Source: Cyanidioschyzon merolae (lineage: Eukaryota). From it: a DNA stretch of 64,000 nucleotides. Location: assembly GCA_000091205.1 (NCBI GenBank), contig AP006494.2; one strand, 5' to 3'. This document shows positions 11,665 through 52,618 of the stretch, piece after piece. Every line of letters begins with the position of its first letter. Position 1 is the stretch's first letter. A program made the translations under genes and the position numbers. The notes under the pieces are model-generated. The model saw nothing but the letters and a program-made list of their open reading frames with translations, was not told the origin of the DNA and ran no database searches.

Positions 11665-12102
11665 ATGGTCAAGTTCATCAAGCCGGGCAAGGCCGTGATC
11701 GTTACCTCGGGAAGACAAGCAGGTCATAAGGCCATAATCGTTCGTTGCTATGATGAGGGCGGTAGCACCCGCAAGTTTAACCACGCCCTCGTTGTCGGCG
11801 TCGAGCGGTACCCCCTGAGAGTCACACGTGAGATGAGCGAGAAGCGTATCGCGAAGCGGTGTCGAATTCGACCTTTTGTGAAGTTTGTGAACTACGTGCA
11901 CATGCTGCCGACGCGGTATAATGTGGACTTTTACGACGAGCTCCGTCAGGTGCTACCGGAAACGCTCGGACTGGGCACGGCGGACGACCCCTGGACCACC
12001 CTGGAGAGTCGACGGAGCTGTCGCATCGCGGTGAAGAAGATCCTAGAACAGAAATACCTGACGGGAAAGTATCGATGGTTTTTCACTAAACTCCGGTTCT
12101 AA
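11665..12102 (+). CDS. RPL27: 60S ribosomal protein L27 (eL27)
   Basis: MVKFIKPGKAVIVTSGRQAGHKAIIVRCYDEGG...HALVVGVERYPLRVT...KRIAKRCRIRPFVKFVNYVHMLPTRYNVD...KYLTGKYRWFFTKLRF. ATG at 11665; the track ORF starts upstream at 11545 in the same frame but homology begins at 11665. Confidence 0.92.
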   Translation: MVKFIKPGKAVIVTSGRQAGHKAIIVRCYDEGGSTRKFNHALVVGVERYPLRVTREMSEKRIAKRCRIRPFVKFVNYVHMLPTRYNVDFYDELRQVLPETLGLGTADDPWTTLESRRSCRIAVKKILEQKYLTGKYRWFFTKLRF

Positions 12103-23683: not shown

Positions 23684-26600
23684 ATGCTAGATACGGGACC
23701 CCCAGCGCCACCTCAATCCATTTTACATAACTTTTCGGCCTCAGGATACACCGCTGCCGATGATTGCCCCGATGAGCTCTTGCTAGCTGCTCTCGAAAAG
23801 AGCGGTAACCAAGCGTCCACCGCGGTGGGCGTCCCGCAAGCACCGTTCAACAATGAGCGTATCAACGAGACAGCGCTCGAGTTTCCGCTTTGCGCACGGG
23901 ACGAGCGTCCCGCAGCCGTCCCGCAAGCACCGTTCAACAATGAGCGTATCAACGAGACAGCGCTCGAGTTTCCGCTTTGCGCACGGGACGAGCGTCCCGC
24001 AGCCGTCCCGCAAGCACCGTTCAACAATGAGCGTATCAACGAGACAGCGCTCGAGTTTCCGCTTTGCGCACGGGACGAGCGTCCCGCAGCCGTCCCGCAA
24101 GCACCGTTCAACAATGAGCGTATCAACGAGACAGCGCTCGAGTTTCCGCTTTGCGCACGAGACGAGCGTCCCGCAGCCGTCACGCTCGACGAGGAGGCTG
24201 CAAATTCATGGACCTTTCCGGGTGCGTTGCACATTCGGGAGTACCAGTTCAACATTGTCCGCCGAGCGCTCACGCGCAATACCCTGGTCTGCCTCCCAAC
24301 AGGATTGGGTAAGACCCTGATCGCGGCCGTCGTGATGCTGAACTACATGCGCTGGTACCCTGACGGCATCGTCGTTTTTGTAGCGCCAACAAGACCACTC
24401 GTTCACCAGCAAATGAAGGCATGCTATCAGAGCGCAGGTATTGCACCCCAGCTCACAGCTGAGTTGACGGGCCATACGCGTTTGGCTGCCCGTCGAGCGC
24501 TCTGGCATTCCCGCCGGGTCTTCTTCTCAACCCCGCAGGTGATGTTGAACGATGTCCTGCGACACATCTGTCCCGTCCAGCGCATTGTCTGCGTCGTCTT
24601 TGATGAAGCGCACCGGGCAACTGGTCGATACGCTTACTGTGGACTGGTCTCCGAAATAGAACGGAGCACGGGGGGCTGTTTCCGCGTGCTTGCCCTGACG
24701 GCAACGCCAGGAAGCAGCGCGAACGCCATCCAGCAGGTTATCCACAACCTCCGAATAGCACATCTCGAGTTTCGGCAGGAAAGCGACCCGGACGTACTCC
24801 CGTACACGTACGAGCGCCAGGTGCGGGTAGAGCGAGTTCCTCTGGACGCGGCAATCGCTCAAGTCCTCGGTGCTTTTCAGCGGAGCCTTGCGAGCACGCT
24901 ACAGAAGCTCTGTGCACACGGTGCTTTTTATCAGCGCAACCCGGAAAAAGTGCAACACTACCAGCTAGTCATTGCACAGCGGCGTTGGATTGAGGCTTCT
25001 CGACGACAACAGACATCGAACGTCAATGCCAGCAGAACACTTCCCGTGGCGCTCTTTCGTGACTTTGCGCACGCGCTCCTACTCAGTCGATCAGTTGAGC
25101 TTTTGCGCTCTCAGGGACTAGGAACATGTGTTCGGTACCTCGAGCAGGAACGCACCGCTCAAGCAAAAGGCAACCCGCGTTCTCCGAATGAGCTCACCCG
25201 TCGAAGTGAGCTCCAGGAGCTCCACCTCCGAGTCAAACAGCTTCTCGAGCACGGTACGCGCCATCCGAAGATTGAACGATGCAAGGAGCTCGTTGTCCAG
25301 CACTTTCTGCGGCACGGCTCGTCGGCGTCAACACGAGTAATGATTTTCGTCCAGTACCGCGATGTCGTAGCAGAGCTGGAGGCAGCACTTTCCCAAGCGG
25401 CACCGACGGTTCGACCCGCCTCCTTCATCGGCCAAGCAAACAGTGGTATGACACAAGCCGACCAACATCGTATCATGCGCTTATTTCGACAGGGTGCGCT
25501 GAATTGCCTGGTGAGCACCAGTATCGGTGAAGAGGGCCTCGATATCGGGCACGTTGACCTCATCATCAGTTTCGACGCACTCGGATCGCCGATTCGCATG
25601 CTGCAACGGATGGGCAGGACTGCCAGGGCTCGTGCAGGCCAAGTCATTGTCCTTGTTTCGGAGTCGGCGGAATCACAGCGTTTCGAGGAGATGAATCGTC
25701 GAGCGAATGGTATCGCCGAAACGCTCCGCGATAAGTATAGCAAGTTTAAGTTTTTCAAGGAGTCACCGCTCATGCTGCCGGCTGAAGGCCAGCCGATTCG
25801 ATGCCAGGTGCTGCCGCTCACAGCGATGCCCGCGCTAGAGTCGCAGTCCCAGGAGCCTGAACGTCCCCGAGGGGAAGCGGGTTCGACGCAAGCCCCGCCG
25901 CTGTCGCCACGACTCGAGCGTTTGCTGGTGCTCTGCGTCAACTCAAATCGATCTATGGACTGGATGAAACGCCGTCCGTTGCTGGCGCTGAGCGCATCGC
26001 GGGATACATCGACTGAGGCGGCTCAGATTGTCCTCAACGAAAGCAGGTCCATCGAAGCGCAGTATCGGGTACGCTGCACTTCAACCACGTCGATGCTCTG
26101 GATCCGACTTCACCGACTTGTGCAGCACTTCCTTACCGGAATGCAGGCATCAGAGGTACCAATTTGCTTTGAACGGAGGCAGGGCATCGTCGGGCCTGGC
26201 CGCTGCTGTACGGATTGGAGACGCTCCCGCGAGCTCGCGCTCGACGTCCAGCCTGTTCCCTGCAGGGCGTCCGCGGAGCGCGCTCGGGCTCTGCTGGAGA
26301 CAGGGCCTGCTGAGGCCGCTCGGGCGCCTTTGAGCGATTTCCAGCTCACCTCGGATGCGTCGCAAACGGGTCCCCCGCATTCGGAGAGTGCTCATGGAGA
26401 ACCGATCATACCAATGTGTTCAACGAGCGTCCGGATCGACGCGACTGCAAGCGCTCCAGCCGCTGGTACAGGTGCTGTCGCCTCAGCCAGCGCAGTCTAT
26501 TCGTGTTCAGAAAGCGCTCGGTGCGATGCACATTCGGACCCCACATTGGATACAGCGCGTTATGCATCATCGCCCTGGAATGCACTTTTTCCTGAACCAT

Positions 26601-28996
26601 TGTCGACTCCAGCAGATGCCTCTGATCGCGTCGGTGCCCCGCGTGGCTCTCTGGACGCGGCCAGCAACACATCGAGCACCTCTTCGGTGGTGGAGATACC
26701 CACACCCCCGGAGCTGGTGTCGCGAGCACAGCAGGAGTGTCCAGCAGCGATTCCATCTTCAGATTCAAGGTCATCATCATCATCATCATCTGCGTCGTAT
26801 TCACTGTGTATTGCGGGGAGCTGTTCGCCGCACGGCACTCGGGGCGGTCACGAGTCGGTGCGGTCTACGCGAAGCAGCACACCTGCTTGCCGTATTGATG
26901 AATTTATCTCAAATACGGGTTTGTGGCATTCGTCGTCGGTTGCTGTTCAATCATTACAACGCGAAGCGAATGCAACGTTTCGGCCGACTGAGCATCCGGA
27001 TATTCCGAGTGATCACGGTGCATTCAGTGAAGCGCTGCAAGGTGCTGCACACAATGCTAACACTGGCAGCGTGGCGTGTCATGTGTCAGCTGCGCGGGAA
27101 TGCGCTACTCCAGACGTGCCAGAGGAGGTCGCTTCTTCAGATATCTATTGGGATGAGGTACTCTACCGCACTGCCGCTCTCGCGGAAGAGACCATTCATG
27201 GCCAGTCATGTAGATGTCGAGCGTCACCGCAGCAACTGAACGCGCACTCGCCAAAAACGGCACATTTAGGCTCACCTGCTCATGCGAGCGTCCAGCATCG
27301 TGGAGGCGGCACCCAGTCGGCAAGTCCCCAGACGTACGCCCAGCATTGCCCCGGTTACCCCGGTGAGGCGGTGACTCCAGGGGCGCCACCGTCCTTCCTG
27401 GACGACAACGGTAGCCTGAACTCGGTCGGAGCACCAGCTCGGATACCTACCAAGCGACAACGCGCTCACCTACGGCGAGCACAGGCGAGCGATACGGGAA
27501 CACCGGTGCAGTCGCCGAGCGGCGGCAGCCAGTGTGTCTGTACCCGTTCGAGTGCACGCTCGCACCGCGTTGCTGCGTTAGAGCACTCTCCGGCTATTTT
27601 GACGCCATTCTTGCACCACCGCGCCGCAAGAAGGCCACGGCTGGTCCGAATCAGCGACGCTGCCAGTCAGGTTGCACAGGGCACTGCTCTGAGCGACGCG
27701 CTGCCTAGCGGTAGCGCCAGTCGCTGTCTTGAGGTTGCGGAGGCGTCGCCACGAATATCCGCGAGGCTCGGCTCGGTTGCGCAGCGTCCACGCGCGGCTG
27801 GTACCCGAAGCGCACCCAACAAAAGGATCCGACGCAAGCGTCGGCGTGAACTCGTAGCCGCTTTCATCGACGATCAAGCGGAGGTCTCCAGTTCCGAAGG
27901 CAATGCCTCCGTTGATCCAGACGTTGCCGAAGCGCTTCGCGGCACCGACGGCGACTCCACTAGTCCTGATACCGATACGCCGGGCTCCCTGCGAGCATTC
28001 CTCACGAGCCAGGCGACGAGCCAGTCCACCGGTGAACAACGTCGACAGCGGGCGATGTACTGGCGCTCGTTGCGCTCGCCACAGCTCCACTCACCATTAT
28101 CAGCACAAGTGGAGCACAGTTTGACGACAACGACAACGGATCATCGTGCCTCTATCGTCCAGAGTGGAGCCTCTTCAGAAACCACATCACGACACGGTAT
28201 GCTGGCCGGTCTGAATGAGCCCAGCGAAGGCACTGCAACGGAGCCGGTTGCATCGTCTCCAGACACACCGTGTTATCGCTGTGGGCGGAGTCAGGACCCG
28301 GAGCGTACGCTCCTGTGTGACCGCTGCGACATCGAGTGCCATACGTATTGCTGTGATCCACCGTATGCATCTGTTCCCAGTGGATCCTGGTACTGTCCCC
28401 GGTGTGAGGCGTATCAGCGGAATGTACGCATCCTGGTACATTCGCGCAACCTGAACCATCCCCTACTGACCGCAGTTCGGGAGCAACTCGCGCGCTCGTA
28501 TCCATTGTCGGGTCTGGTACCGTGTGCGGGCCTCGAAGCAGACTATGTCGTGTCGCCGCGAGTTGCAGTGTTCTTTCTCGGACCCGAAAGTGGTCGCACA
28601 CCGAATAGAGAACAGTGGTTCGAGCGACTCGAACGAGCAGCTTCCCGTTACACGCGCATCTTCGTGTGTTGGGTATGGACGAGTCCAATTCAGTTGAGTC
28701 CACGAGGTCTCCCGGCCGTGCTCAACACAAATGCAACGCTCCTTCGCTGCAGCGGAATCGCTCAGGCAGCGGAACGCATCACTGACCTTGCGCTTCTCGA
28801 GCACAGAAGCGGTTACGGACTCGCCTGGGTTCCTTTGTCGTGGCCGGATCGCTTTCAAATGGCCTTAGGATTTCTTCAAAAAGCCGCCGATATGTCCTTC
28901 CTACATGCTATGCTGCTTCTGCTTCGCCACGGCAACGGGATGGACGCTCTACGGGACTGGTATCGCCACGAGGGCGCAGCAATGGCGACAACGTGA
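23684..28996 (+). CDS. FANCM: FANCM/Mph1/Hef-family DEAH helicase (~1770 aa) with C-terminal PHD finger and degenerate ERCC4-like pseudo-nuclease domain
   Basis: ORF 23648..28996 (GTG at 23648; first ATG 23684). Helicase motifs REYQFNIVRRALTRNTLVCLPTGLGKTLIAAVVM, VVFVAPTRPLVHQQ, CVVFDEAHRATG, LVSTSIGEEGLDIGHVDLIISFDALGSPIRMLQRMGRTARARAG at ~24210..25650. PHD finger CYRCGRSQDPERTLLCDRCDIECHTYCCDPPYASVPSGSWYCPRCE at ~28270..28408. ERCC4-like LEADYVVSPRVAVFFLG with the ERK triad replaced, at ~28420..28800. Confidence 0.85.
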   Translation: MLDTGPPAPPQSILHNFSASGYTAADDCPDELLLAALEKSGNQASTAVGVPQAPFNNERINETALEFPLCARDERPAAVPQAPFNNERINETALEFPLCARDERPAAVPQAPFNNERINETALEFPLCARDERPAAVPQAPFNNERINETALEFPLCARDERPAAVTLDEEAANSWTFPGALHIREYQFNIVRRALTRNTLVCLPTGLGKTLIAAVVMLNYMRWYPDGIVVFVAPTRPLVHQQMKACYQSAGIAPQLTAELTGHTRLAARRALWHSRRVFFSTPQVMLNDVLRHICPVQRIVCVVFDEAHRATGRYAYCGLVSEIERSTGGCFRVLALTATPGSSANAIQQVIHNLRIAHLEFRQESDPDVLPYTYERQVRVERVPLDAAIAQVLGAFQRSLASTLQKLCAHGAFYQRNPEKVQHYQLVIAQRRWIEASRRQQTSNVNASRTLPVALFRDFAHALLLSRSVELLRSQGLGTCVRYLEQERTAQAKGNPRSPNELTRRSELQELHLRVKQLLEHGTRHPKIERCKELVVQHFLRHGSSASTRVMIFVQYRDVVAELEAALSQAAPTVRPASFIGQANSGMTQADQHRIMRLFRQGALNCLVSTSIGEEGLDIGHVDLIISFDALGSPIRMLQRMGRTARARAGQVIVLVSESAESQRFEEMNRRANGIAETLRDKYSKFKFFKESPLMLPAEGQPIRCQVLPLTAMPALESQSQEPERPRGEAGSTQAPPLSPRLERLLVLCVNSNRSMDWMKRRPLLALSASRDTSTEAAQIVLNESRSIEAQYRVRCTSTTSMLWIRLHRLVQHFLTGMQASEVPICFERRQGIVGPGRCCTDWRRSRELALDVQPVPCRASAERARALLETGPAEAARAPLSDFQLTSDASQTGPPHSESAHGEPIIPMCSTSVRIDATASAPAAGTGAVASASAVYSCSESARCDAHSDPTLDTARYASSPWNALFPEPLSTPADASDRVGAPRGSLDAASNTSSTSSVVEIPTPPELVSRAQQECPAAIPSSDSRSSSSSSSASYSLCIAGSCSPHGTRGGHESVRSTRSSTPACRIDEFISNTGLWHSSSVAVQSLQREANATFRPTEHPDIPSDHGAFSEALQGAAHNANTGSVACHVSAARECATPDVPEEVASSDIYWDEVLYRTAALAEETIHGQSCRCRASPQQLNAHSPKTAHLGSPAHASVQHRGGGTQSASPQTYAQHCPGYPGEAVTPGAPPSFLDDNGSLNSVGAPARIPTKRQRAHLRRAQASDTGTPVQSPSGGSQCVCTRSSARSHRVAALEHSPAILTPFLHHRAARRPRLVRISDAASQVAQGTALSDALPSGSASRCLEVAEASPRISARLGSVAQRPRAAGTRSAPNKRIRRKRRRELVAAFIDDQAEVSSSEGNASVDPDVAEALRGTDGDSTSPDTDTPGSLRAFLTSQATSQSTGEQRRQRAMYWRSLRSPQLHSPLSAQVEHSLTTTTTDHRASIVQSGASSETTSRHGMLAGLNEPSEGTATEPVASSPDTPCYRCGRSQDPERTLLCDRCDIECHTYCCDPPYASVPSGSWYCPRCEAYQRNVRILVHSRNLNHPLLTAVREQLARSYPLSGLVPCAGLEADYVVSPRVAVFFLGPESGRTPNREQWFERLERAASRYTRIFVCWVWTSPIQLSPRGLPAVLNTNATLLRCSGIAQAAERITDLALLEHRSGYGLAWVPLSWPDRFQMALGFLQKAADMSFLHAMLLLLRHGNGMDALRDWYRHEGAAMATT
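23831..24178 (+). repeat. Four perfect tandem copies of an 87-bp unit, in frame inside the FANCM-like CDS (29-aa repeat PQAPFNNERINETALEFPLCARDERPAAV)
   Basis: Unit start positions 23831, 23918, 24005, 24092. Only one substitution is visible across all copies. Confidence 0.95.
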
Positions 28997-30425: not shown

Positions 30426-30636
30426 GCTAGGTCGCTAGGTCGCTAGGTTGCTAGGTCGCTAGGTCGCTAGGTCGCTAGGTCGCTAGGTCGCTAGGTCGCT
30501 AGGTCGCTAGATCGCTTGGTCGTTAGGTCGCTAGGTCGCTAGGTCGCTAGGTCGCTAGGTCGCTAGGTCGCTAGGTCGCTAGGTCGCTAGGTCGCTAGGT
30601 CGCTAGGTCGCTAGGTCGCTAGGTCGCTAGGTCGCT
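30426..30636. repeat. (GCTAGGTC)n 8-bp minisatellite, ~26 copies with few variants
   Basis: Read directly from sequence. Lies immediately 5' of the minus-strand RING E3 gene start (30350). Confidence 0.95.
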
Positions 30637-31883
30637 ACCGTTTCTCCGACCTGAGACGTTACCAGAGGCCTGCGGCACGGGCCCGGCGCAGGCAGGCCCT
30701 TGCGCTGCGATGATCGAGCGCGCTGCGCACTGGATACCTCATGAGCAGCTAGCGTTCACGGTTGCATGGAGCGCGGGCTGCTTGGTATCGTGTCCGGTTT
30801 TGCCAAAGGCAAGACGGGTTTGAATCTCGAGGAATGTGGTCGTGCTTTTCGAGTGAGGTATGGTGGTCTGTTTTCTGAAAGTTTAGAGCACGTACGCTTT
30901 CAGTGGAGTCTAGATCGATGCACCTAACGCACCAGGTAGAAGGAAGGCCTGCTTGCGTTGCTTCTCGTGAGGATCGGAAGCGCTTTGCGCACGTGTTTCA
31001 GCACTTGCAGGTATGCATGGGGAACGGTTCGTGGGAACGCGAAACTATTGAAGCCGCGAAAGACTGTGCACACTTTAGTTGTAGCGGTCGATGGTCAGGT
31101 GCGGAAACCTTGGGGTGCGTAGAAGGCGAGCGTTGCGCTCGCCGTTCTGCAGCGCAGAGGCTCGATCAGAAACGATCCGGTATCATAGTTGGGCACGTGC
31201 TTGCAGGGACATTGCTTACCCAGACACGCTTTTCTAAAAATACGGTCTTGTCGTTACGTTTCCTGGTTCGAGCGGGCGCGTCACCAGGTGAGGTCCACAA
31301 AGCACCTCGCTAGCGCGCGCGTTGCGGACGAATCCCAGAGAAATCACAGCGGCAGTCCAGGACTTGTACGACGAATGCAGTATAAGGGCATCATTACGTG
31401 CGGGTTGGAAGCAGTTTACGGAGGGATTTGTTGACTTTCGTCGGATCGGCGTTTGTGCCGGCCTTTGTGCCTCCCAATGAATCTTGCATATGGATTCGCT
31501 CTGGGTAGCGGCGAGGCGCCATTTTGCGCGTCAGCAGCTCTCTCTGTTGCGCTGATGTCGAGTCCGGTCTGGTGACTTTATTTGCTGGCGCATCAGGCAT
31601 GGCGCTCGAGGCATCAGCGCATCGTTACGGGCATTGGCATCCACGCGTACGCTTCCCAGCGCTTGGGTGACAGATTCGATCGCGTGCGCTTCCACTAGTC
31701 AAGCACGTAAACGGTTCCCGCCTTCAAGCGATGAGACGACGGCATACAAAGCAGAGCCTGGAACGCCTACAACGCAGATCGCGGTGCTGCTTCGGATGCC
31801 GACGCTCGCTGCAGCGCGCACGATGGATCGTCGAACGCAGCCGACGTTGCCGCCGGTGAAGTAGAACTGGATGCGTGTGTGGA

Positions 31884-35012: not shown

Positions 35013-38000
35013 TTAGGAGGTCAGCGTTCCCGCGTGAACTCGATCGAAAAAGGATCCCAGATCCTCTGCCTGAATGCCGTCCGCATACAACACCAAATCC
35101 ATGGTTAGTGAAGATGCTATCGACGCTGGTGCGTGCGACTCTATGCGCATATAAACACCATCCAGTGTAAGGAGGAGGGGGCTAGGCGCATTAGCGGGAC
35201 GCATGATGCCGACAGCGTAAAGCGTTTCTGTGAAAGGTTCTAAAGCCCGCAAAAGATCCATGAAAGCTGCCACATCGATTGGCATTGTTCGCTGGAGGTG
35301 GAGGCGGCGGAATAGCCTGCCTCTGTTCGCAGCCGCTGGACGGTGTGCATCGCCAGCAGGTGCAGCGTCCTGCATCGCCTGTGCGGTGAGGCGCGGCAGT
35401 ACACGCGAATCGGCATCATGAGTGGGAGCTGTTGTTGTTGTTGTTGTCGTCGTCGTCGTCGCTTCTGCTTCACGCAGCCAAGGTCGATTGCGCCTGCGTA
35501 CCCAGATTGCTGCAGGCTGCAGCCGGCCGTAGGGTGCACATATCACCCTGGCGTGCGGATTCCATCCACAGACGTGTTCCAGGATTTGCTGCAAACGCTC
35601 CGCAGGTACAACGTCCGACTTGGTAAATACGACTGTGTCCGCACTGGCGACAAGCTGCTGCTGGATATGGTCTTGCGACCGGAAACGGAGGCAATCCACC
35701 GCACACACAACAGCATCGACGCCGTCAAGCGGCTCGTCCGTCTCTAGGGCTAAGCGGAACGGACGCGGGTGCGATTCGAGACGGCTAGCGAGCGCTGCCT
35801 CGCTGACAGCTTCCAGCCGCTGGCGTTGCAGCAGAGTGCTCGGGCCTGGTGGCTCAAGTCGCCACGCCAGCAGGTCCTCGTGGGCGTTCAGCGCTCCAAC
35901 CAGCGAGGTTTTGCCCGCCCCTGGCAAGCCGCAGACTGCCAGAATACCCTCATTCGCGGGTAGTGGTTCAACATCTCCCGGAACAAGTATACGCTCGTTC
36001 TGTTCGCTGTTTGCTTCTGAACGCTTTGCTTCACCCGTGATGAGTATCCACGGCGGTGCGACTCGCGATGAAAGGCGCTCGACAAAAGAGGGCGGTTGAG
36101 CGGCTGGCGGGGTCTTTCCGCCGGCCCGTGTGCTGTCCGTGTTCGGTACTAGCGACTCGAAGGGGTCTTCAAACTCGCTCCAGGCTTCCGTAAAGACGAG
36201 CTCTTCGTCGCGTAGGAGACATTCATCCAACACTATCTGAATCCGCATCGCATCCAGATCTTCCCCGAGAAACACGATTTCACTGCAGCGATCGCCAAAG
36301 CGCTCATCCCATTGCAGCGGTCGCATTCTATCTTGCGAGTTCGGGGCGCTTGGCCACTGTTCCAGCGGTAGGGTAACGAGAAATCTTTGCCCACGTTTCA
36401 GGGTTATATTGTTTCCGACCTGGCTCCATTCGAGAAAACTGTCCATCCGATTTGCTAACCATAGTTTTCCGACAGAGCGCAAGACACCGTGGAAGGTGCT
36501 AATGTCACTGATCTTGTCAAATAGGCGACGCGGATGAAAAGGACGGTTCGCTCTGTAAAGAAAACTCGTCTCGGGTCGCACGGTTTCCGTGCTGAAGCCT
36601 CGCTCCCATGGTCGCGTTCCACTGTACAGCGTCGCGAGGAATTGCTCGTTGCTGAACCGCGAGTCCCAAATAGGTCGCGCGGTACCTGCTGCTGACGACA
36701 CCGCAGGAGCAGCGGGGTGCGTGGCACTGCCTCCGGTCGCTGCTCCGGGGCCCTTGGGTGCCGCTGCCTTTCCCGGATCATAACCTGCATCGGGTGCGGA
36801 GGCAGCGCCCCAGGATGCGGTGGCAGCTGTCGTCTCCTGTGACGCTGACGCCGCTGACGTCTCGGGTACCGTCGCTCTGGTGGCTGGCGTTGCAGCCGCT
36901 GTTGACGTGCCTACAGATGGTCCAGCCTTTGCTGAACTTTTTCCCGTACTCTGTGCTCTGTTCTCTGGCAATGCGGAACCGTATTTCTGGGAAGTTTTCG
37001 TCAGTTCCGTCGCAGCGAAAGAAGCAAGAACCCGGCGCCAGGTCGGCATCCAGAGCATCCGCTCCGGATCAAACGGTCGCTCGAGAATGCGCTCCAGGAG
37101 TGTTTGTGGCCATTCAGTATTCGCGTGCATGAGAATCACCTGAGCCTCGCAGTTCAAGAGTCGAAGATAACGAAGTAGGTTCTGGAAAGAGGGCGTCGGG
37201 GCTGTACGGACCTCGGGATCAGGACTTGCGTCCTGCGACTTGCGCATCGGCCGCACGTCCGCATCTGTCTCCCGACCAGGCATTTGTTGTTGGTTGTACA
37301 CGACGACAAGGTTCGCATACTCTATTTGATCCACCAGGAGCTGCACCAAATTATCAGCCTGTGCGTTACTTGCTGATCCCCGTTCCCGCTCCATAGCGGG
37401 TGGCCGTCGTGCTGACGCTCCATCGTTGTCGCCTGCACCTACATCTCCAGCTTCCACGCGCGATGCAGTTTTCTTCTCGTGCAGCAGCGTACCTCGGGAT
37501 GGACTTGAGCCGTCCCGCGAAGTCTCCACGGTATCGCTCGTCGCGAGCGCTTGGTCAGCGTCGTTGTGGCTGATTTCCAGTCCAGTCCCGCCAGTTATAC
37601 CCGTCGCTGTCGTTGGGATGCGTTCCGAAGCCGGCGACGTCTGCGCTGTATTCTCAGGGCTATACGCGACAGACGCCGTTTCTTGTTGTCGCAGCGTCGG
37701 TGCGAATACCTCCGCAGCCGCCGCTGCATCGATGACGCTCACGAGCGCAAGAAGCTGCAGCGGCCACTCAACATGCGCAAGACTGTCGGCGATGGCATAT
37801 GGCTCCTCTTTTTCAGGGCTGCAGACGATGAGGTAGTCCACACCGTACGCTGCCTGGACCTGAAACAGATTCACAGGGCTGGGTGCAGCTTCCACTGTTT
37901 GATCCGCAGCGCTCTGTACCGCGGACCCGCTTTGCGCCTGACTAGCTCTTGGCGTGCGAGCTCGTCGTCTCATCAACTGGTCAATTTTGGGTCCGAGCTC

Positions 38001-38930
38001 ATCCTGGTTCACACAGTTGTCGAGAACTTCAAAGTAGATATGGGTACCGATTAACGCGGAGCACAACGATGAAGGCAGAGATTCCGTGCACAGCGATGCA
38101 TTAACCAGCCAGCCAGCTTCATCCTCATCCCAGACGAGTCCCAGCCGAGTTGCGAGTGTTGCCGGCAAAAGCACGCCCACGCGCGGCGGGCGCTCCTCCG
38201 GCTGCGGCGATCGTTGCAGCAACTGCTCCAGCAACGTTCCTAAAAGTCGCAAACGCGCGATATCATCTAGCCCGCTGAGCACCACGGTGGGCACCGGTGT
38301 ACTTCGCAGCGTTCTCCGCTGTGTATCACTCTCCGCGGCCTGTGTGGGCTGACTTGTCTGTTGTGGTGGCCGTTGAGCAGCGCCCATGGCAGCTGCCTCT
38401 GCGCTCGCGTCTGGCGGGTCCGAACCCCCGCCGTCTGTAACATCAGCGCTCCACTGGAATGCAGGCAAAACGACCGCGAAGATCGTGCTAGTATTCCTCT
38501 GTAGAGCAACGTGGTGCAGAGAGCGACGCAGTGAGCGCTGGTTGAAAGCTACTGGTGCCGCTGCGAAAGAAGAGCGTGTTAGTGGGCGATGCTGAATGGG
38601 CCGCACCTCCCAGGCACGCCCTCGAGCATGCCTTGGGGTAAGCGTCCTCGGAACGCGACTGCTCCACTGCAATACCGTTCTTTTCTGTACTATCCTTTCC
38701 TGTGGGAATAGATATCCCGCATAAATGACTTGCCCCTGTAAAACAGGGGCGAACATGGGCAACATCAATGTACTCTTAGGGTCCTCTTCGTTTGCTGCGA
38801 ACCGGCGAGCGCTGGTGAAGCCAACCTTCATGCGCGCTCCGCGAAGCGCACTGCCGCGCACCGGTCGACGCGATCCGATGCTTTGTGTAACCGCAGGTGC
38901 TTCGAGGTGCTTTCTTACGAGGTGCTCCAT
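35013..38930 (-). CDS. Giant tandem COG0523/CobW-like (ZNG1/CBWD-family) protein: module 1 pseudo-GTPase plus CobW_C, module 2 P-loop GTPase plus divergent CobW_C, long low-complexity linkers
   Basis: Module 1: VPTVVLSGLDDIARLRLLG (P-loop lost), DYLIVCSPEKEEPYAIADSL, LQLLALVSVIDAAAAAE, QIEYANLVVVYNQQQM (NKxD lost), LLNCEAQVI, then CobW_C GKLWLANRMDSFLEW...CSEIVFLGEDLDAMRIQIVLDECLL. Module 2: ILAVCGLPGAGKTSLVGAL, LDGVDAVVCAVDCLRF, ADTVVFTKSDVV, WNPHARVI, C-terminal LVLYADGIQAEDLGSFFDRV. Neither module has a CxCC motif. The first in-frame ATG (38930) lies inside the 127-bp repeat; the next ATG is 38831. Confidence 0.65.
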   Translation of the reverse strand: MEHLVRKHLEAPAVTQSIGSRRPVRGSALRGARMKVGFTSARRFAANEEDPKSTLMLPMFAPVLQGQVIYAGYLFPQERIVQKRTVLQWSSRVPRTLTPRHARGRAWEVRPIQHRPLTRSSFAAAPVAFNQRSLRRSLHHVALQRNTSTIFAVVLPAFQWSADVTDGGGSDPPDASAEAAAMGAAQRPPQQTSQPTQAAESDTQRRTLRSTPVPTVVLSGLDDIARLRLLGTLLEQLLQRSPQPEERPPRVGVLLPATLATRLGLVWDEDEAGWLVNASLCTESLPSSLCSALIGTHIYFEVLDNCVNQDELGPKIDQLMRRRARTPRASQAQSGSAVQSAADQTVEAAPSPVNLFQVQAAYGVDYLIVCSPEKEEPYAIADSLAHVEWPLQLLALVSVIDAAAAAEVFAPTLRQQETASVAYSPENTAQTSPASERIPTTATGITGGTGLEISHNDADQALATSDTVETSRDGSSPSRGTLLHEKKTASRVEAGDVGAGDNDGASARRPPAMERERGSASNAQADNLVQLLVDQIEYANLVVVYNQQQMPGRETDADVRPMRKSQDASPDPEVRTAPTPSFQNLLRYLRLLNCEAQVILMHANTEWPQTLLERILERPFDPERMLWMPTWRRVLASFAATELTKTSQKYGSALPENRAQSTGKSSAKAGPSVGTSTAAATPATRATVPETSAASASQETTAATASWGAASAPDAGYDPGKAAAPKGPGAATGGSATHPAAPAVSSAAGTARPIWDSRFSNEQFLATLYSGTRPWERGFSTETVRPETSFLYRANRPFHPRRLFDKISDISTFHGVLRSVGKLWLANRMDSFLEWSQVGNNITLKRGQRFLVTLPLEQWPSAPNSQDRMRPLQWDERFGDRCSEIVFLGEDLDAMRIQIVLDECLLRDEELVFTEAWSEFEDPFESLVPNTDSTRAGGKTPPAAQPPSFVERLSSRVAPPWILITGEAKRSEANSEQNERILVPGDVEPLPANEGILAVCGLPGAGKTSLVGALNAHEDLLAWRLEPPGPSTLLQRQRLEAVSEAALASRLESHPRPFRLALETDEPLDGVDAVVCAVDCLRFRSQDHIQQQLVASADTVVFTKSDVVPAERLQQILEHVCGWNPHARVICAPYGRLQPAAIWVRRRNRPWLREAEATTTTTTTTTTAPTHDADSRVLPRLTAQAMQDAAPAGDAHRPAAANRGRLFRRLHLQRTMPIDVAAFMDLLRALEPFTETLYAVGIMRPANAPSPLLLTLDGVYMRIESHAPASIASSLTMDLVLYADGIQAEDLGSFFDRVHAGTLTS

Positions 38931-39510
38931 TTGCTAGAGCACATGTGATGCGGTGTATTTCCTTCATACGGTATGGAGGAAGCGGGTATTGAAAATGTTG
39001 TTGCGAAATGATTGCAACCGCAGGTGCTTCGAGGTGCTTTCTTACGAGGTGCTCCATTTGCTAGAGCACATGTGATGCGGTGTATTTCCTTCATACGGTA
39101 CGGAGGAAGCGGGTACTGAAAATGTTGTTGCGAAATGATTGCAACCGCAGGTGCTTCGAGGTGCTTTCTTACGAGTTGCTCCATTTGCTAGAGCACATGT
39201 GATGCGGTGTATTTCCTTCATACGGTACGGAGGAAGCGGGTACTGAAAATGTTGTTGCGAAATGATTGCAACCGCAGGTGCTTCGAGGTGCTTTCTTACG
39301 AGTTGCTCCATTTGCTAGAGCACATGTGATGCGGTGTATTTCCTTCATACGGTACGGAGGAAGCGGGTACTGAAAATGTTGTTGCGAAATGATTGCAACC
39401 GCAGGTGCTTCGAGGTGCTTTCTTACGAGTTGCTCCATTTGCTAGAGCACGTGTGATGCGGTGTATTTCCTTCATAGGATATGGAGGGAGCAGGTATTGA
39501 AAATACTGTT
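38889..39510. repeat. 127-bp tandem repeat, ~4.9 copies (array A), overlapping the 5' end of the CobW-like gene
   Basis: Unit starts 38889, 39016, 39143, 39270, 39397. Each unit contains CAGGTG, two further GAGGTGCT copies and the palindrome CACATGTG (CACGTGTG in the last copy). Each unit also starts an ATG ORF on the minus strand. Confidence 0.95.
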
Positions 39511-41232
39511 TCTAAATAAATAACATTTCGATCGCTCTTGGGTTCACGGAGACATCCTTGGACAGGGATACTTTTCGCGATTGATCGCAGTGTTTACAGA
39601 CGTCTTTCAAAATACATGACTTCCAATATCGACCGACTATCGCGTCAGCCACAAAGCACCGGAAAGTGTCACTGTGTGCATGTAGTGCATGGACCCCACG
39701 TCTCGCGTTAAGGACCCTGCTTATCCACTGGGCATTGAGTCGAGCACTCGCCCATTCGGAGGCCCAGTATACGCAGAGCAATGGCACATTCACTGCGAAC
39801 GCCGATGTTCGTAGCGCTCTGAGCACAGTGTCGGAGGCCCTTTCTGCCGATGCTCGGTGCCTCGACGACCTCCACAAGCACACAGGGCAATTGTGGAATC
39901 CCGCCTCGTCGGTGGAATATACGAGTCATTGCCATCTACAATCTGTTGCTGCATTCGCGAGCATATGAGAAGCCTATGCAAGCGGCATCTGTCTACGAGC
40001 AGAGGGCACTGGGCCCTGGACACTCGCTGGTGCAAGTTCTTCGACACGATGGCAACTTGTGCTTCGATGCGTCGTCTCCGGATCTCAGAACGCGCTCGCT
40101 GCGGACGCTTCGGGCAGCACTCCACACGTACTTAGCTGAGAATACGGCTTCAATGGTATGCGGGGTCGCTATATCGCCTTCATAGAACTCCGGGCTTCAA
40201 GTCACCGTGTTTATAAGCCCTAAAGAAATTGCTACAATGTTTTCGTTCGCACACCTCAGAGTATGCCAGTCTTTGCGGTGCGTCGTGTCCCGCACTGAGC
40301 GACGAATAGACCAACAACATGGAGATCTTGTACTCGTGTGTGTATGTACTTGGTACGTGCTTCTGAGGATCTAGTCCGAGTCACTGGCAGGAACGATATC
40401 GATAGAAGGCCAACACCATTTCGACTAAGCCAAGTAGAGTGTCACGAAAGAGAATCCTTCTGAACTGGAGACTCCTAGCCTGGCTACAGCCAATGTTGGG
40501 CGTTTCGTTCTTGGACGCAGCGCGCCTTATATGCCGGTAACGCATTCCCAACTGCATTACCGACTCTGAACCCGGAGCGTTTTATACTCCATAATGCAAA
40601 ACGCAAACGACAGCGCCACTCCAAACGGATGCAGCTCCGAAAAAGCGTGAGTTCCACGTACCGATTCTCATCTGGTATACAGCGACGCGCTCTGAACATC
40701 TCGCGGCGTACCCGAGTGGGTCCTTCGAATGACGATGACGATGCACTAGTCTTTAGACAGTCACAGGGACCTGTAGTAGAGCATCGCGCAAAACAGGAAG
40801 CGCTTTCCGAGCAGCACAAGAGTCGGCGATCCAGCCTGATCGAACGGGCCTCGGTAGCAAACGCCGGTTATGTCGATGACGATAGCCATCGCACCCGTAA
40901 TCATGGAAATCGTGGAAATCTCCTCTTCCGGACACTGTTTGCATTGCTCCATCAAAGCGAAACACCAGCTGATATGAATTGCTCTCGTGATGCGTGACGT
41001 GAACGCTCCTCTCGAGAGGCAGCACACATCCGGTGCAACCTCGAAAGCGTTCCGGCCGCTCTCAAGGCGGTGTTGTTAAGCAACCACCCGATCGTTGCGA
41101 TAGCGCGTATCCGCATACCGGTGTGCTTCTGTGGCCCGTCGAGAATCAATTCATGTGGACTGACGGTAGCTTCGGCGCGCAAGCTGTCGGGAAATCGGAC
41201 GCAAAGTTCGCGTTACCAAATCGATCACCGCT

Positions 41233-43320
41233 CTACGCAATAGAGTTCGACTTGTAGGCTGCTCGCAACGTCTCAAAAACACGTTCCCGCAAGAGTCGCT
41301 CGGCAGGGCGGCGGATGTCGTTCGCCGCCCCGCGGTCGGGGTGTGTCAAGAGCAGCGCTCGCCGATACGCGACCTTCACTTGCTGTTCATCCAGCAAAGC
41401 CTGCACAGTGAGACGCTCCCAGCCAGAGTCCTCACCTAGAATCTCGTGCAAAGTGCTCAGAAGCGCTCGAATGTTATGTGCTCGCGATCCGTTTCGCGTC
41501 CATTCACTGATGCGTTGCTCGACGACAAAGATGACTTCTGGGGTAGCGGTGCCATCTTGCGGCTCCAAAGTTTCCCGTGTCCCAGAGGTGACCTCACGGT
41601 AACCAGTGGAGGTTTCTGTTTCGATCGTGACCGAACTACTGTCCGCCGTGTATCGTTCACGAGCTTCATGTGCAGTGGGGGTCGAGCGTATCGCATGCTT
41701 ACGCCGCTCAGCGGTTGTGCTGCTGCTGCTGCTGCTGCCTGTACTGTTGCCGTTGCTCCTGCGAGTCGCCTGGAGAAATTGTTCGGGTGTGGCAGCATTG
41801 GAAGCCCGGACACGCTGTGGATCGTCGACGACTTCATTAACCTCATCCCAGGGGCTTGCCTCCTGTGCACCGCTATCCATCGCGGTAGCAGCCGCTACTG
41901 ACACAGCGTTTGAGCTGGAGGCAGGATGCAGCGCAGGTGCTTCCGCTGGTGTTCCAGCCGGGGCGTGATGCGCCGTTGCCTGAGCAGGGGCGCTTTGTGA
42001 CACGTCTTCAGACTCTTCCTCAATATCCACAAGCTGATCTTCGAGTGGTCCCTTGGGAGCGTTAGGCCTTGCTGTGCACGTCTGATCCTCTGCGCAATGG
42101 CCAGCAGGCCAAGTCGATGTCGACGGCGGCGACGATAATGACCCTGCCCGGGCGTTTCCTCGAGAGCTCACGACGTCAGCCACTGGTGCGGCGGCTGTGC
42201 TTGCTCCAGCGTCCGTCATTACGGCCAGTCCTCGTTCAAAAGCAGTATCCAAGGAACTTGCATCCAATTCGGATGCGCCAGTTGTCGGCGTAGGGCGCCA
42301 TTTCTCGTGTAATGTTTGCCATAACGTTTCCGGCTTGGTCGCCGTGGATCGTTCCATCTGCTTCCGAGTCGAAAGGCGCTGCAGAGCAGACCGACCGAGA
42401 GCGGCCTCATTGGATGGAGCGCCCCCGTCAGCTCCAGTCCCAGCTCCAGTTCCAGCACCAGCGGGATTCCCGCACGAATCAAGCCTCCTGTTCGGCCTGT
42501 TCCGCGTCGCAGCCTTCTTCGAAGAATCATCGCCATGAAGGCGGTGCTGCTCCGTCACCACAAAAGAGGCCGCTGCATAAAATTGTCGTTGAATTTCGAG
42601 CAGCTCTGTGAGGCAACTCGGTAGTAGCTCCGAGCGGGCCAGAATCCACGCTTCGAGGTGCACACAGGTTTCCTCGCACTTGCCCAAGAGAGGTCCCATC
42701 ACACTATTATAGACTTCTTCCACAGAACCAACGTACCCATATGCACCACTCTGCATACTTAGCTGCCGCAAACTTGCCTGTGCTTGTTGAATCTCTTCGA
42801 CCAAGCCAAGGACGCCCTCGAGGAGCGCCTGACCTTCATTGAGTGCCATCGCTAGCGGCTGCTGAACCCGCAGCCGGAGACGTTTCTCAGTCACGCGCAG
42901 CACTCGTTCTTCAAGGTCCAGCTGACACTCGTTCCATTGCGCCCAGAGCGCCCGTCGTGTAGCGTCCGGTTCCATGTTCGATGCGCTGGTACCGGGCTCT
43001 GTGACAAACGGCGATGAGGGTACTGCGTCGCGCCAGTTTGCCATAAACTCCTGCATGCTCCTCAAAATACGCTCTATCGACGTTTCGAATCCAACCCAAT
43101 CATGCAACATCTGGTATAGCGTGGCTCCAGCAAAGCTAAGTCGCTGAAAGCGCTCACCGAATGTAGCTAGCCGTTGCCCGACGTGCTCCCACCGGCTCAG
43201 TACGTTCCGAACGTTCACCGGGCCGGTGCTATTCGCTTTGGCCTCAGAAACACTCCATTGTGCTGCACGCTTCGCCTCCTGCCCCAGTTCCCGCAGTCTA
43301 TTCCGCCAGGAGCGGAACAT
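41233..43320 (-). CDS. Auxilin-like J-domain protein (C-terminal J domain)
   Basis: ORF 41233..43401 (TTG at 43401; first ATG 43320). C-terminus NIRALLSTLHEILGEDSGWERLTVQALLDEQQVKVAYRRALLLTHPDRG matches the auxilin/GAK J-domain (NIRALLSTMH...QVKKVYRKAVLVVHPDK). Upstream region is low-complexity with (GCT)n-encoded poly-Ala. Confidence 0.75.
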   Translation of the reverse strand: MFRSWRNRLRELGQEAKRAAQWSVSEAKANSTGPVNVRNVLSRWEHVGQRLATFGERFQRLSFAGATLYQMLHDWVGFETSIERILRSMQEFMANWRDAVPSSPFVTEPGTSASNMEPDATRRALWAQWNECQLDLEERVLRVTEKRLRLRVQQPLAMALNEGQALLEGVLGLVEEIQQAQASLRQLSMQSGAYGYVGSVEEVYNSVMGPLLGKCEETCVHLEAWILARSELLPSCLTELLEIQRQFYAAASFVVTEQHRLHGDDSSKKAATRNRPNRRLDSCGNPAGAGTGAGTGADGGAPSNEAALGRSALQRLSTRKQMERSTATKPETLWQTLHEKWRPTPTTGASELDASSLDTAFERGLAVMTDAGASTAAAPVADVVSSRGNARAGSLSSPPSTSTWPAGHCAEDQTCTARPNAPKGPLEDQLVDIEEESEDVSQSAPAQATAHHAPAGTPAEAPALHPASSSNAVSVAAATAMDSGAQEASPWDEVNEVVDDPQRVRASNAATPEQFLQATRRSNGNSTGSSSSSSTTAERRKHAIRSTPTAHEARERYTADSSSVTIETETSTGYREVTSGTRETLEPQDGTATPEVIFVVEQRISEWTRNGSRAHNIRALLSTLHEILGEDSGWERLTVQALLDEQQVKVAYRRALLLTHPDRGAANDIRRPAERLLRERVFETLRAAYKSNSIA

Positions 43321-43581
43321 GACCGCGTCACCAACCCAGTCTGAGAACTGAGCGCTCTCGAGAAAAAGTCGCGTAGCGCCGCGCCGAGGGCGCTGGTGCA
43401 AGGCGCGCTTCGTTCTCGGACTGGGTAGGCACAGGTGCGGTGTTCCCTAGACGCGTTGCCAGGTTAGAGAGCGTTTGACCTTTCGATCTGTGAACGTTCA
43501 GAGTATTCGTGTTTCTGCAACGTCCTGGTTGTGTATCAAGAGAGCATTAAGTTCGACGGTTTTCTTTCCGAGGGCTTGTGA

Positions 43582-44397: not shown

Positions 44398-44877
44398 CGA
44401 GACTGCTATGGCTGAGCGCACTCGGTGGTAAACCGCGAGCGCTGCGACAGTACTGACACAGCGATCATAGTGCCCCGCAGTTGCGGAACATGAGAGGCGT
44501 GTCGCTGTAGACCCGTCGAAAACTTTTGTTGCCTTGCAGCTCACGCGGTTAGCGCGGGTCGCAGCTTGCGAGCACATTCCCTTGGCAGGAGGTGCACGGC
44601 GAACGAAGTGCATCCCTGTAGCGAGGCGACGAGGCGTCCCAGGAGCCACACGCGGGCATCTCTTGCACACGCTGCGGCTGGTCTAGGCAGCCTTCATCGA
44701 ACCTAAAGAGTCGCTATATATAGCGCCCGTGCAAACGTTTCGACGCGAGTCAGCGTCACAGTTCGAGGAGTGCAACCGCGCCCGCCTCCGGAAGCCTTGG
44801 CTACTGTTGCGAGCGTAAGGCAACGCCTGCAGGAGAGCGAGGTACCGCCTGGACCGCGGTGTCTCGCAAGGACACTT

Positions 44878-45513
44878 CAACGCTGACCATATTCTACGCC
44901 GTCGACTTTTGCAGCGCTTCACGATGACTGGTGTATCCTAGTGCACGAGCAAGACTCTGGCTTTGCTCTAGGTCGCCCAACGTAACAGAGCTGCAACTGT
45001 GTTTCAACGCTGACCATATTCTACGCCGTCGAGTCTTGCAGCGCTTCACGTTGACTGGTTTATCCTAGTGTACGAACAAGACTCTGGCTTTGCTCTAGGT
45101 CGCCCAACGTAACAGAGCTGCAACTGTGTTTCAACGCTGACCATATTCTACGCCGTCGAGTCTTGCAGCGCTTCACGTTGACTGGTTTATCCTAGTGTAC
45201 GAACAAGACTCTGGCTTTGCTCTAGGTCGCCCAACGTAACAGAGCTGCAACTGTGTTTCAACGCTGACCATATTCTACGCCGTCGAGTCTTGCAGCGCTT
45301 CACGTTGACTGGTTTATCCTAGTGTACGAACAAGACTCTGGCTTTGCTCTAGGTCGCCCAACGTAACAGAGCTGCAACTGTGTTTCAACGCTGACCATAT
45401 TCTACGCCGTCGAGTCTTGCAGCGCTTCACGTTGACTGGTTTATCCTAGTGTACGAACAAGACTCTGGCTTTGCTCTAGGTCGCCCAACGTAACAGAGCT
45501 GCAACTGTCCTCC
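44878..45513. repeat. 127-bp tandem repeat, 5 copies (array B), sequence unrelated to array A
   Basis: Unit starts 44878, 45005, 45132, 45259, 45386. Copies 2-5 are identical; copy 1 carries several substitutions. Between SDF2-like 3' end and TMPK 5' end. Confidence 0.95.

Positions 45514-49304: not shown

Positions 49305-49398
<94 letters not shown>
49305..49398. repeat. (GCGT)n tetranucleotide microsatellite, ~23 copies, alternating purine/pyrimidine
   Basis: Read directly. Ends 58 bp upstream of the SENP ATG, in the divergent OAT/SENP intergenic region. Confidence 0.95.
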
Positions 49399-49399
<1 letters not shown>

Positions 49400-49455
49400 A
49401 GCTGCCTCAACTGTAGGGCGCTTACCGCGCTCGGTACTTGAGCGGAACGTGTCGA

Positions 49456-52404: not shown

Positions 52405-52523
52405 ACCAGGAATATACGGCTAGCAGGGGAATCGTGATGGAGCGTGTTTCGCGTGACCAGTGCGGATCTGGTTCCTGTTCAAAAGGCATGTTGGACAAAA
52501 TTGATCCTATATATCTATCTTCG

Positions 52524-52618
52524 TGCAAAATGGGCGATTTTAACTAGATATTTTATATATGTACATTTTCATGCTAAACGGGCGATTGCAACTAGATATT
52601 CCATATATGTTCGTGTTC
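52524..52618. repeat. ~48-bp imperfect direct repeat x2 inside an AT-richer island
   Basis: TGCAAAATGGGCGATTTTAACTAGATATTTTATATATGT / TGCTAAACGGGCGATTGCAACTAGATATTCCATATATGT. Confidence 0.8.

Follow-up and report, generated by a model that had tools for sequence, protein, structure and literature searches.

Five head-to-tail copies of a 127-bp unit, 97% identical, occupy positions 38889-39517 of the 64-kb window (the whole stretch of DNA analysed here), on chromosome 12 of Cyanidioschyzon merolae 10D. From sequence comparison, this array, designated array A, is probably a minisatellite (VNTR) of recent origin, confined to this locus and hypervariable, that lies in the spacer 5' of a divergent CobW-like gene. 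Its pattern combines identical inner copies, diverged edges, mosaic variant repeats and a copy number that depends on the strain. We propose that a 127-bp piece of 5'-flanking sequence was duplicated in tandem in the Cyanidioschyzon lineage, and that copies may then have been gained, lost and exchanged by replication slippage, unequal sister-chromatid exchange or gene conversion. Amplifying one unit automatically yields the features that mark the array, its E-box-like motifs repeated five-fold and its succession of ATGs with short ORFs. A sequence-specific function would not be needed to account for array A, and any effect on transcription would be an incidental result of copy number, as with promoter VNTRs elsewhere.

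Array A is a locus of five near-identical 127-bp copies

Tandem Repeats Finder (TRF) placed the array at 38889-39504 (period 127, 4.9 copies, 97% matches, score 1155) and, with permissive settings, at 38886-39517 (5.0 copies), and a repeat search returned a start-to-start distance of 127 bp four times over. The original prediction of about 4.9 copies of a 127-bp unit at the 5' end of the minus-strand CobW-like gene is confirmed by the TRF result (4.9-5.0 copies, period 127) and by the location of the array in the 5' flank of that gene. When the copies were compared in register, c3 (39143-39269) and c4 (39270-39396) were the same, c2 (39016-39142) was 1 nt off these two, c1 (38889-39015) was 3 nt off, and c5, beginning at 39397, had a diverged tail comprising its last ~19 nt. 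The inner copies are identical, and it is the edge copies that have diverged. With its head-to-tail arrangement, high identity and a unit of at least 10 bp, array A has the tandem structure of a minisatellite.

The array lies 124-750 bp upstream of the conserved ATG of the CobW-like gene at 38765. Between the two is a unique, GC/CpG-rich segment of 123 nt (38766..38888, minus strand), which is likely to be the core-promoter or 5'UTR region and which carries only 1 SNP across 13 wild contigs. On the distal side, a 1.7-kb non-coding spacer (39518..41232) reaches to the stop codon of a co-directional J-domain gene (41233-43401, minus strand); it contains no ORF conserved with Cyanidiococcus, no Rfam family and no tRNA. 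No further copy of unit A was found in the 64-kb window or in wild contig L001, and all matches to a 22-mer of the unit in a non-exhaustive scan of metagenomes were at the array A locus. By these comparisons array A appears to be locus-specific rather than a dispersed element.

Copy number and sequence of array A vary among wild strains

The original prediction had suggested comparing copy number among strains. Our wild sample consisted of C. merolae-like metagenome contigs, 99.1-99.7% identical to 10D, some of which were retrieved through RPL7Ae and thymidylate kinase look-ups. Array A does differ in this sample: compared with 5 copies in 10D, we found 2 copies in the spanning contigs L002/L015 and L003/L005, and at least 3 in L010, L013 and L014, in which c1 is followed by a c2 of the non-terminal type. 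Most wild contigs end ~1.9 units into the array, and no single-copy allele was present among the wild contigs seen. The 2-copy counts come from short-read metagenome assemblies in which identical inner copies may collapse, and the exact series is to that extent uncertain; with this caveat, copy number differs among strains as it does in a VNTR.

The unit itself is also variable. Of the first 107 nt of unit A, 16 were variable, and of the adjoining 589 nt, 8, which gives array A ~10x more variable sites than its flanks; the excess in the edge copies over flanks and CDS returned Fisher p values of 0.01, 0.001 and 6e-8. Array A thus shows the variant-repeat mosaics, and the mutation above that of the flanks, that characterize VNTRs.

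Instability of this kind is not peculiar to array A but general in this part of the chromosome. The unit of array B (44876-45508, 127 x 5.0), 6 kb from array A, is present once in 8 wild contigs, twice in 3 and five times in 10D, forming a clean 1/2/5 series, and a 48-bp array at 52507 counts 2.2 copies in 10D and 2.7-4.9 in wild contigs. Arrays A and B share exactly the same unit length and both sit in 5' intergenic spacers; their units are unrelated (local alignment score 16 versus a shuffle mean of 15.9). It is a long shot, but the shared 127-bp period could reflect a length-determined duplication process in C. merolae, e.g. breaks paired at a spacing set by chromatin, in which case promoter VNTRs might be a source of expression variation in this alga, whose transcription factors are very few.

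Array A is missing from the syntenic locus in Cyanidiococcus

Synteny with Cyanidiococcus is kept over ~28 kb around the CobW-like locus. We found no tandem repeat, no similarity to unit A and no SAGGTGCT cluster in the 1.1-kb spacer upstream of the Cyanidiococcus ortholog. Array A is therefore missing at the syntenic locus and, on this comparison, lineage-specific. Absence from orthologous loci is one half of what the original prediction had itself named as refuting a regulatory role, the other half concerning the TSS and expression.

The annotated start codon of the CobW-like gene lies inside the array

The ORF of the CobW-like gene matches, with 100% identity, a protein of C. merolae 10D annotated at 1305 aa. 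Exact look-ups of the CobW-like protein from each of three starts (38930, 38831 and 38765), and of its 271-aa neighbour, returned no match. Pfam identified CobW_C (PF07683, E = 4.5e-15, aa 789-905) and cobW (1.7e-6), and the protein comprises two CobW-like units. In the 1305-aa numbering, the first has a degenerate P-loop together with the CobW_C domain at aa 789-905, and the second carries GLPGAGKT (aa 1001) and TKSD (aa 1103). It therefore possesses one intact P-loop, GLPGAGKT, of the G3E GTPase Walker A form GxxGxGK[ST], as well as a CobW C-terminal domain. A motif scan of the 1305 aa found no C.CC, C..C or CC, so the CxCC motif is absent; this was checked by direct scan and not by alignment because a PDB sequence search returned nothing at E<=0.01. 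CxCC is a feature of the COG0523 family, of which only a subset is linked to zinc (PMC2770081). As the CobW-like protein is without CxCC, zinc regulation cannot be inferred from family membership, which weakens the zinc-regulation argument of the original prediction.

The annotated start codon (M1, MEHLVRK..., 38928..38930, minus strand) is located inside copy 1, with an in-frame TAG just upstream at 38934-38936. An alternative in-frame ATG (M34, 38829..38831, minus strand) lies in the unique CpG-rich 5' flank, and gene callers took its equivalent on wild contigs L005 and L006, giving 1277 aa. The original prediction had called the start ambiguous between these two, and the ambiguity was borne out; neither, however, is the best candidate, as the alignment with the ortholog begins at the ATG at 38765. 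This conserved start codon (M56, MLPMFAPVLQG..., 38763..38765, minus strand) is 124 bp downstream of array A and opens a CDS of 1250 aa (35013..38765, minus strand). M56 aligns with M1 of the Cyanidiococcus ortholog (MIPTFIPASLG...), the local alignment beginning exactly at both Met residues, and the similarity between residues 56-95 of the C. merolae protein and 1-40 of the ortholog was significant by shuffling (P=0.0035). Within residues 1-55 nothing resembled the ortholog (P=0.46), whose own M1 is not preceded by any in-frame ATG. The ortholog was found with an N-terminal fragment, since low-complexity words crowded the candidates in the whole-protein search, which returned only the protein itself. 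The codon-usage log-odds of residues 1-55 was intermediate at 0.027, with 15% of coding windows lower and 7% of non-coding windows higher. One array ATG happens to be in frame with the gene, so that a longest-ORF annotation would start at 38930, inside the array; the annotated start is probably such a longest-ORF artefact, and the annotated N-terminus of the 1305-aa protein probably holds 55 residues read from repeat and flank. A start at 38831 instead of 38765 is possible.

Motifs and upstream ATGs in unit A are multiplied with the unit

Each copy of unit A contains an internal sub-repeat of three 8-mers, CAGGTGCT, GAGGTGCT and GAGGTGCT (38894..38926, plus strand, in c1), which returns 127 bp further on from copy to copy; its gene-strand form is AGCACCT[C/G]. 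CAGGTGCT and the GAGGTGCT at unit position 16 are each in 5/5 copies, and the third 8-mer is GAGGTGCT in c1-c2 and GAGTTGCT in c3-c5. A palindrome, CACATGTG, occupies unit positions 52-59 (38940..38947 in c1) and recurs in c2-c4, with CACGTGTG in its place in c5 (39448-39455); unit position 55 is an A/G polymorphism across copies and strains. Four CANNTG sequences are present per unit, and the sites of E-box/G-box class are CAGGTG, CACATG/CATGTG and CATTTG, with CACGTG in copy 5. All motifs listed in the original prediction are therefore there, including CACGTG in the last copy, but the 8-mers are not spaced 5 and 7 bp apart: their starts are 10 and 15 nt apart, leaving gaps of 2 and 7 nt. The homotypic cluster of SAGGTGCT in unit A is non-random and far above chance: one unit has three matches within 33 nt, where the whole 64 kb would be expected to have 5.15; of the 25 matches in the window, 12 are inside array A. 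CACRTGTG showed no enrichment when the array copies were counted as one, and the five-fold number of every motif is due to duplication of the unit.

Of the motif positions of the unit, 5/32 were variable, and of the others 11/75; among the variants were CAGGTG to CATGTG, GAGGTG/GAGTTG and CACATG/CACGTG. The motifs thus appear, by sequence comparison, to be under no constraint relative to the rest of the unit, and they are neither conserved in the orthologous promoter nor constrained within the species. The gene-proximal copy retains CAGGTG in all wild contigs seen, and a CACCTG of like orientation precedes the ATG of the Cyanidiococcus ortholog by 58 nt, for which a rough estimate of the chance of occurrence is ~0.07.

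The array also multiplies ATGs. Gene-strand ORFs beginning MEH/MEQLVRKHLEAPAV... and 89-93 aa long (~2.1 units) start in copies 1-4, and the same ATG in copy 5 (39438) opens the ORF 39169..39438. In total, 14 gene-strand ATGs fall within array A, in all three frames, which confirms the prediction of one ATG ORF per unit, ~2.1 units long, with every frame used. These uORFs occur only as copies within the array, the ortholog having none of them, and neither their number nor their position nor their peptide is conserved. Array A as a series of coding repeats was ruled out, since its unit length of 127 is not divisible by 3 and the ATG has a stop codon 4 nt upstream.

Alternative readings of array A

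Were the bHLH/bZIP sites of the five units to act together as a multimerised cis-regulatory module, i.e. an amplified enhancer or promoter, possibly metal-responsive, or, in a weaker form, one whose copy number tunes expression, this would give meaning to the position of the array 124-750 bp upstream of the conserved ATG, to the four CANNTG and the three SAGGTGCT per unit, the latter far above chance, to the CAGGTG kept in the proximal copy of all wild contigs, to the CACCTG 58 nt upstream of the ortholog's ATG and to the one bHLH encoded by C. merolae (PMC2839125). We nonetheless consider such a module unlikely, as array and motif cluster are both missing upstream of the ortholog, polymorphism is equal in the motifs and in the remainder of the unit, the array exceeds its flanks ~10x in variability, duplication accounts for the number of CACRTGTG sites, the CobW-like protein is without CxCC, and array B, without such motifs, has the same structure and is dispensable. 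The absence from Cyanidiococcus, the polymorphism, the excess variability and the motifs varying like the remainder of the unit likewise speak against the central proposal of the original prediction, a selected module of transcriptional plus translational control. Its translational half would require transcription from distal to or inside the array, so that 3-14 uAUGs in a 5' leader repress or gate the main ORF; alternatively, the protein would truly start at 38930. The 14 gene-strand ATGs in three frames, with ORFs of 59-93 aa, are consistent with this, as are the good context of some uAUGs (AAAUGG) and an AT-rich TTATTTATTTAG element at the distal edge of the array. According to a 2025 paper, none of the endogenous promoters of C. 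merolae has been mapped (PMC12770821), and the HiX TSS, the single mapped C. merolae TSS, is ~165 nt upstream of its ATG (PMC12989068), a distance that from 38765 would reach into copy 1. That array A forms part of a leader is nevertheless distinctly improbable, as uORF number would shift with every change in copy number, the ortholog has no counterpart and no upstream in-frame ATG, residues 1-55 are without homology, and the TAG at 38934-38936 limits the in-frame part of the array to 14 codons. In the scanning model, many uAUGs in a leader nearly abolish translation of the main ORF, as up to 14 would do here.

Two further readings carry far less weight. The units could encode a small structured RNA, e.g. 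a tandem snoRNA-like gene, as the plus-strand GUGAUGC ... CUGA resembles C and D boxes. The C-box-like GTGATGC and the D-box CTGA are ~40 nt apart in copies 2-4, too short a spacing for a eukaryotic box C/D RNA, which needs a wider one, and TTGA replaces CTGA in copies 1 and 5, as it does in almost every wild copy. Rfam searches yielded no match at gathering score and only chance-level matches at E<=10, no tRNA was detected, and the fold z-scores were -0.18 and -1.54; given these z-scores and the lack of a covariance-model match, the structured-RNA reading is effectively refuted and we give it almost no credence. A weak U6-like match adjoining array A (14 bits versus a gathering score of 44, E=1.8) was without ACAGAGA and was dismissed. 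It is also very improbable that the array or its copy number was made by the 10D reference assembly. Both 127-bp arrays are ~630 bp, near Sanger read length, and have identical inner copies, so the reference number could be a collapsed lower bound, and the exact 10D copy number is that of the reference assembly alone. Independent JGI and ENA metagenome assemblies, however, contain identical 127-bp tandem junctions at this locus, which shows that the array does exist and was not created by assembly.

Comparison with known repeat systems

A young minisatellite is the reading that we prefer, and array A shares much with minisatellites and VNTRs such as the human hypervariable loci with their variant-repeat mosaics: locus-specific, head-to-tail units of tens to ~100+ bp, copy number and variant order that differ between close relatives, inner copies homogenised and edges diverged, and mutation much above that of the flanks. 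It differs in that its 127-bp unit is at the long end and its copy number is low (2-5), and in its host, an extremophile red alga that is largely clonal and haploid-dominant and whose genome is very poor in repeats. In yeast, unstable tandem repeats in promoters reportedly change expression with copy number (a finding ascribed to Vinces et al. 2009). Array A is similarly a variable repeat of a compact genome that precedes a start codon by a few hundred bp or less, and changes in copy number would shift the spacing and number of any bound sites; the yeast repeats, however, are mostly short-unit and AT-rich, whereas unit A is 127 bp with 48% GC. Homotypic E-box/G-box clusters in multimerised enhancers, whether synthetic or natural, have the same CANNTG/CACGTG-class hexamers, which array A matches with three SAGGTGCT per unit over five units, but the multiplicity of array A comes from recent duplication rather than from a conserved arrangement of sites, and its sites are polymorphic and absent from the ortholog's promoter. 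With uORF leaders of the GCN4/ATF4 type it would share, if transcribed, several short AUG-initiated ORFs ahead of the main ORF; unlike in those leaders, uORF number varies with copy number and is not conserved.

Practical consequences are modest, and current understanding is not overturned. Strains of C. merolae and populations from hot springs, which are <1% different elsewhere, can be typed with arrays A and B and the 48-bp array as VNTR markers. C. merolae is a minimal model eukaryote with homologous-recombination genetics, in which an effect of a promoter VNTR on expression, if true, would be cleanly testable. We found no description of the arrays, and no expression data for the CobW-like gene, in the literature. 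Cyanidiococcus has 136-bp and 63-bp duplications of its own at other sites.

Structure of the array upstream of the CobW-like gene

Cyanidioschyzon merolae is a red alga with a compact nuclear genome that is poor in introns and repeats. Within the 5' flank of the minus-strand CobW-like gene, TRF placed array A, a 127-bp tandem array, at 38889-39504 (period 127, 4.9 copies, 97% matches), or at 38886-39517 with 5.0 copies under permissive settings, and an independent repeat finder returned four spacings of exactly 127, bearing out the original prediction of about 4.9 copies. When the copies were aligned in register and numbered from the gene outward, copies 3 and 4 were identical, copy 2 was one base and copy 1 three bases off, and the tail of copy 5 had diverged. 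All of the predicted motifs were found in the array, except that the 8-mers said to lie 5 and 7 bp apart are SAGGTGCT sequences with gaps of 2 and 7 nt. Three SAGGTGCT copies inside 33 nt of the unit is far above chance (expectation 5.15 per whole 64 kb); the five-fold multiplicity of every motif arises because one unit was amplified. The proposed string of gene-strand ATG ORFs was likewise present, with one ORF (MEH/MEQLVRKHLEAPAV, 89-93 aa) beginning per unit and 14 ATGs using all three frames.

A coding repeat was ruled out by the 127-bp unit length, which is not divisible by 3, and by a stop codon shortly before the ATG; an assembly artefact was ruled out by the occurrence of the same junctions in independent assemblies. 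Structured RNA was also ruled out: an Rfam scan gave nothing at gathering score and only chance-level matches at E≤10, folding z-scores were -0.18 and -1.54, and a D-box-like CTGA was found only in inner copies of strain 10D. Directly distal to the array, a weak full-length U6 snRNA-like match (39520-39620, minus strand; 14.1 bits vs gathering 44, E=1.8) has a CAAGGATG-like segment and no ACAGAGA box, and is probably due to chance. The spacer upstream of the array extends 1.7 kb to 41233, where a J-domain gene oriented in the same direction has its stop codon, and no conserved ORF, Rfam family or tRNA was found in it.

Array A is polymorphic in wild relatives

An exact-match scan of metagenome contigs with a 22-mer of the unit identified three JGI contigs, all from this locus, with 99.1-99.7% identity to the window, and exact searches for the RPL7Ae and thymidylate-kinase proteins encoded nearby added 20 further loci in JGI and ENA assemblies. 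The 22-mer scan was non-exhaustive, as JGI contigs L011-L014 also hold the 22-mer outside its three matches, and its negatives are weak evidence. The comparison of copy number that the original prediction had called for gave 2 or at least 3 copies in wild contigs versus 5 in 10D. Two independent contigs span the array with 2 copies, which may be a minimum because short-read assemblers can merge identical inner copies, and L010, L013 and L014 carry at least 3 (copy 1, then a copy of non-terminal type). Approached from either side, the array is cut short after about 1.9 units in most contigs, the pattern left by a repeat that an assembler could not resolve.

The wild copies make up many different mosaics, with 16 variable positions in the first 107 nt of the unit versus 8 in the adjacent 589 nt. 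Positionally matched edge copies diverge from 10D by 1.6-3.1%, whereas flanks and coding sequence diverge by 0.1-0.2% (Fisher p 0.01 to 6e-8). Variants fall within the proposed sites (CAGGTG to CATGTG, GAGGTG/GAGTTG, CACATG/CACGTG), motif positions vary at the same rate as others in the unit (5/32 vs 11/75), and copy 5 owes its 'G-box' to one of the two states of an A/G polymorphism.

Absence of the array from Cyanidiococcus and the conserved start codon

Using an N-terminal protein fragment as the query, we recovered the ortholog from Cyanidiococcus yangmingshanensis, where gene order is shared with C. merolae across the whole 23-51 kb of the window. In the 1.1 kb of spacer upstream of the ortholog we found neither a tandem repeat nor similarity to the unit nor a SAGGTGCT cluster, indicating that array A is specific to the Cyanidioschyzon lineage; absence from orthologous loci was one part of the outcome that the original prediction had itself counted against its reading.

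The minus-strand ORF at 35013-38930 encodes 1305 aa, 100% identical to a C. merolae 10D 'hypothetical protein, conserved'. Its annotated start, 38930, falls within copy 1 of the array, with an in-frame TAG at 38934-38936. The local alignment of the two proteins has C. merolae M56 (ATG 38765) and Cyanidiococcus M1 as its very first pair (MLPMFAPVLQG vs MIPTFIPASLG; P=0.0035 by shuffling for the first 40 residues), annotated residues 1-55 show no similarity to the ortholog (P=0.46), and the ortholog has no in-frame ATG from M1 back to the upstream stop. Together, these comparisons place the conserved start codon at 38765, 124 bp below array A, and the gene at 35013-38765 (minus strand; counterpart 10001-13624 of the Cyanidiococcus locus, L001). 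The annotated start is ambiguous, as had been noted, and the alignment favours neither 38930 nor 38831, the two starts offered: 38831 is possible, giving a short extension, and 38930 was most likely produced by taking the longest ORF, a probable annotation error arising as a side-effect of the array. In Cyanidiococcus the annotation splits the continuous homologous region into three genes (598, 373 and 110 aa); mis-annotation or frameshifts in that assembly are the probable cause. In-frame indels of 15 and 21 nt occur in the coding sequence of wild C. merolae contigs.

Control module or VNTR

Pfam matches comprise CobW_C at aa 789-905 and a partial cobW G-domain at aa 1070-1130, and the protein contains two CobW-like units. 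The P-loop of the first is degenerate; the one intact P-loop, GLPGAGKT, is at aa 1001. A motif scan of the whole protein found no CxCC, CxxC or CC. With no CxCC metal site, and with a zinc link for only a subset of COG0523 (PMC2770081), little can be concluded about metal regulation from membership of the family, and the zinc argument drawn from it is weak.

A real element would be weakly favoured by the homotypic SAGGTGCT cluster, by the proximal copy keeping CAGGTG in every wild contig, and by a CACCTG, oriented alike, that precedes the ATG of the Cyanidiococcus ortholog by 58 nt. Just one bHLH gene is present in C. merolae (PMC2839125). We found no positive evidence for the proposed transcriptional and translational control module; array A is an ordinary VNTR, if a nicely documented one, located in a 5' intergenic spacer. 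By 2025 none of the promoters or TSSs native to C. merolae had been characterised (PMC12770821); the only published TSS estimate puts it ~165 nt ahead of an ATG (PMC12989068), a distance that from 38765 would land in copy 1. The VNTR might be partly transcribed, or its copy number might incidentally affect expression.

Other repeats in the region

Array B (44876-45508; 127 bp, 5.0 copies, 98% identity) lies 6 kb from array A, and 402 nt separate it from the thymidylate-kinase ATG (45911) downstream. The two arrays have the same period and about five copies each in unrelated sequences, with no similarity between them; by rough estimate, a chance period match has a probability of a few per cent, given five long-period arrays in the window. 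Array B has 1 copy in eight wild contigs, 2 in three and 5 in 10D, and the single-copy contigs include k=141 assemblies, where two-to-one collapse is not expected. The single-copy allele is of first-copy type (125 nt); where the duplicate joins, 2 nt (GT) are added. A third copy-number-variable array (52507-52608), intergenic and AT-rich with a 48-bp period, is present in 10D at 2.2 copies and in wild contigs L018, L016, L015 and L017 at 2.7, 2.9, 4.1 and 4.9 copies, respectively. Flanking the E2F/DP gene, Cyanidiococcus carries tandem duplications of 136 bp x 1.9 (L001 16351-16604) and 63 bp x 1.9 (L001 17661-17781), neither of which is matched at the orthologous site in C. merolae. Judging from arrays A and B, the 48-bp array and these duplications, intergenic minisatellites in these algae arise and change fast, regardless of sequence content.

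Within the 1782-aa helicase-like ORF at 23648-28996 (plus strand), an 87-bp array of 4.1 copies (23830-24185, 99% identical) encodes a repeat of 29 residues; the unit length, 87, is divisible by 3 and so keeps the frame. The octanucleotide microsatellite GCTAGGTC x 26.5 (30426-30637) lies ~76 bp upstream of the minus-strand RING-finger gene ATG (30350). TGCG x 23.8 (49305-49399) lies just upstream of a Peptidase_C48-like ORF starting near 49438, and the alignment of one wild contig (L003) breaks there, suggesting that this repeat is length-polymorphic.
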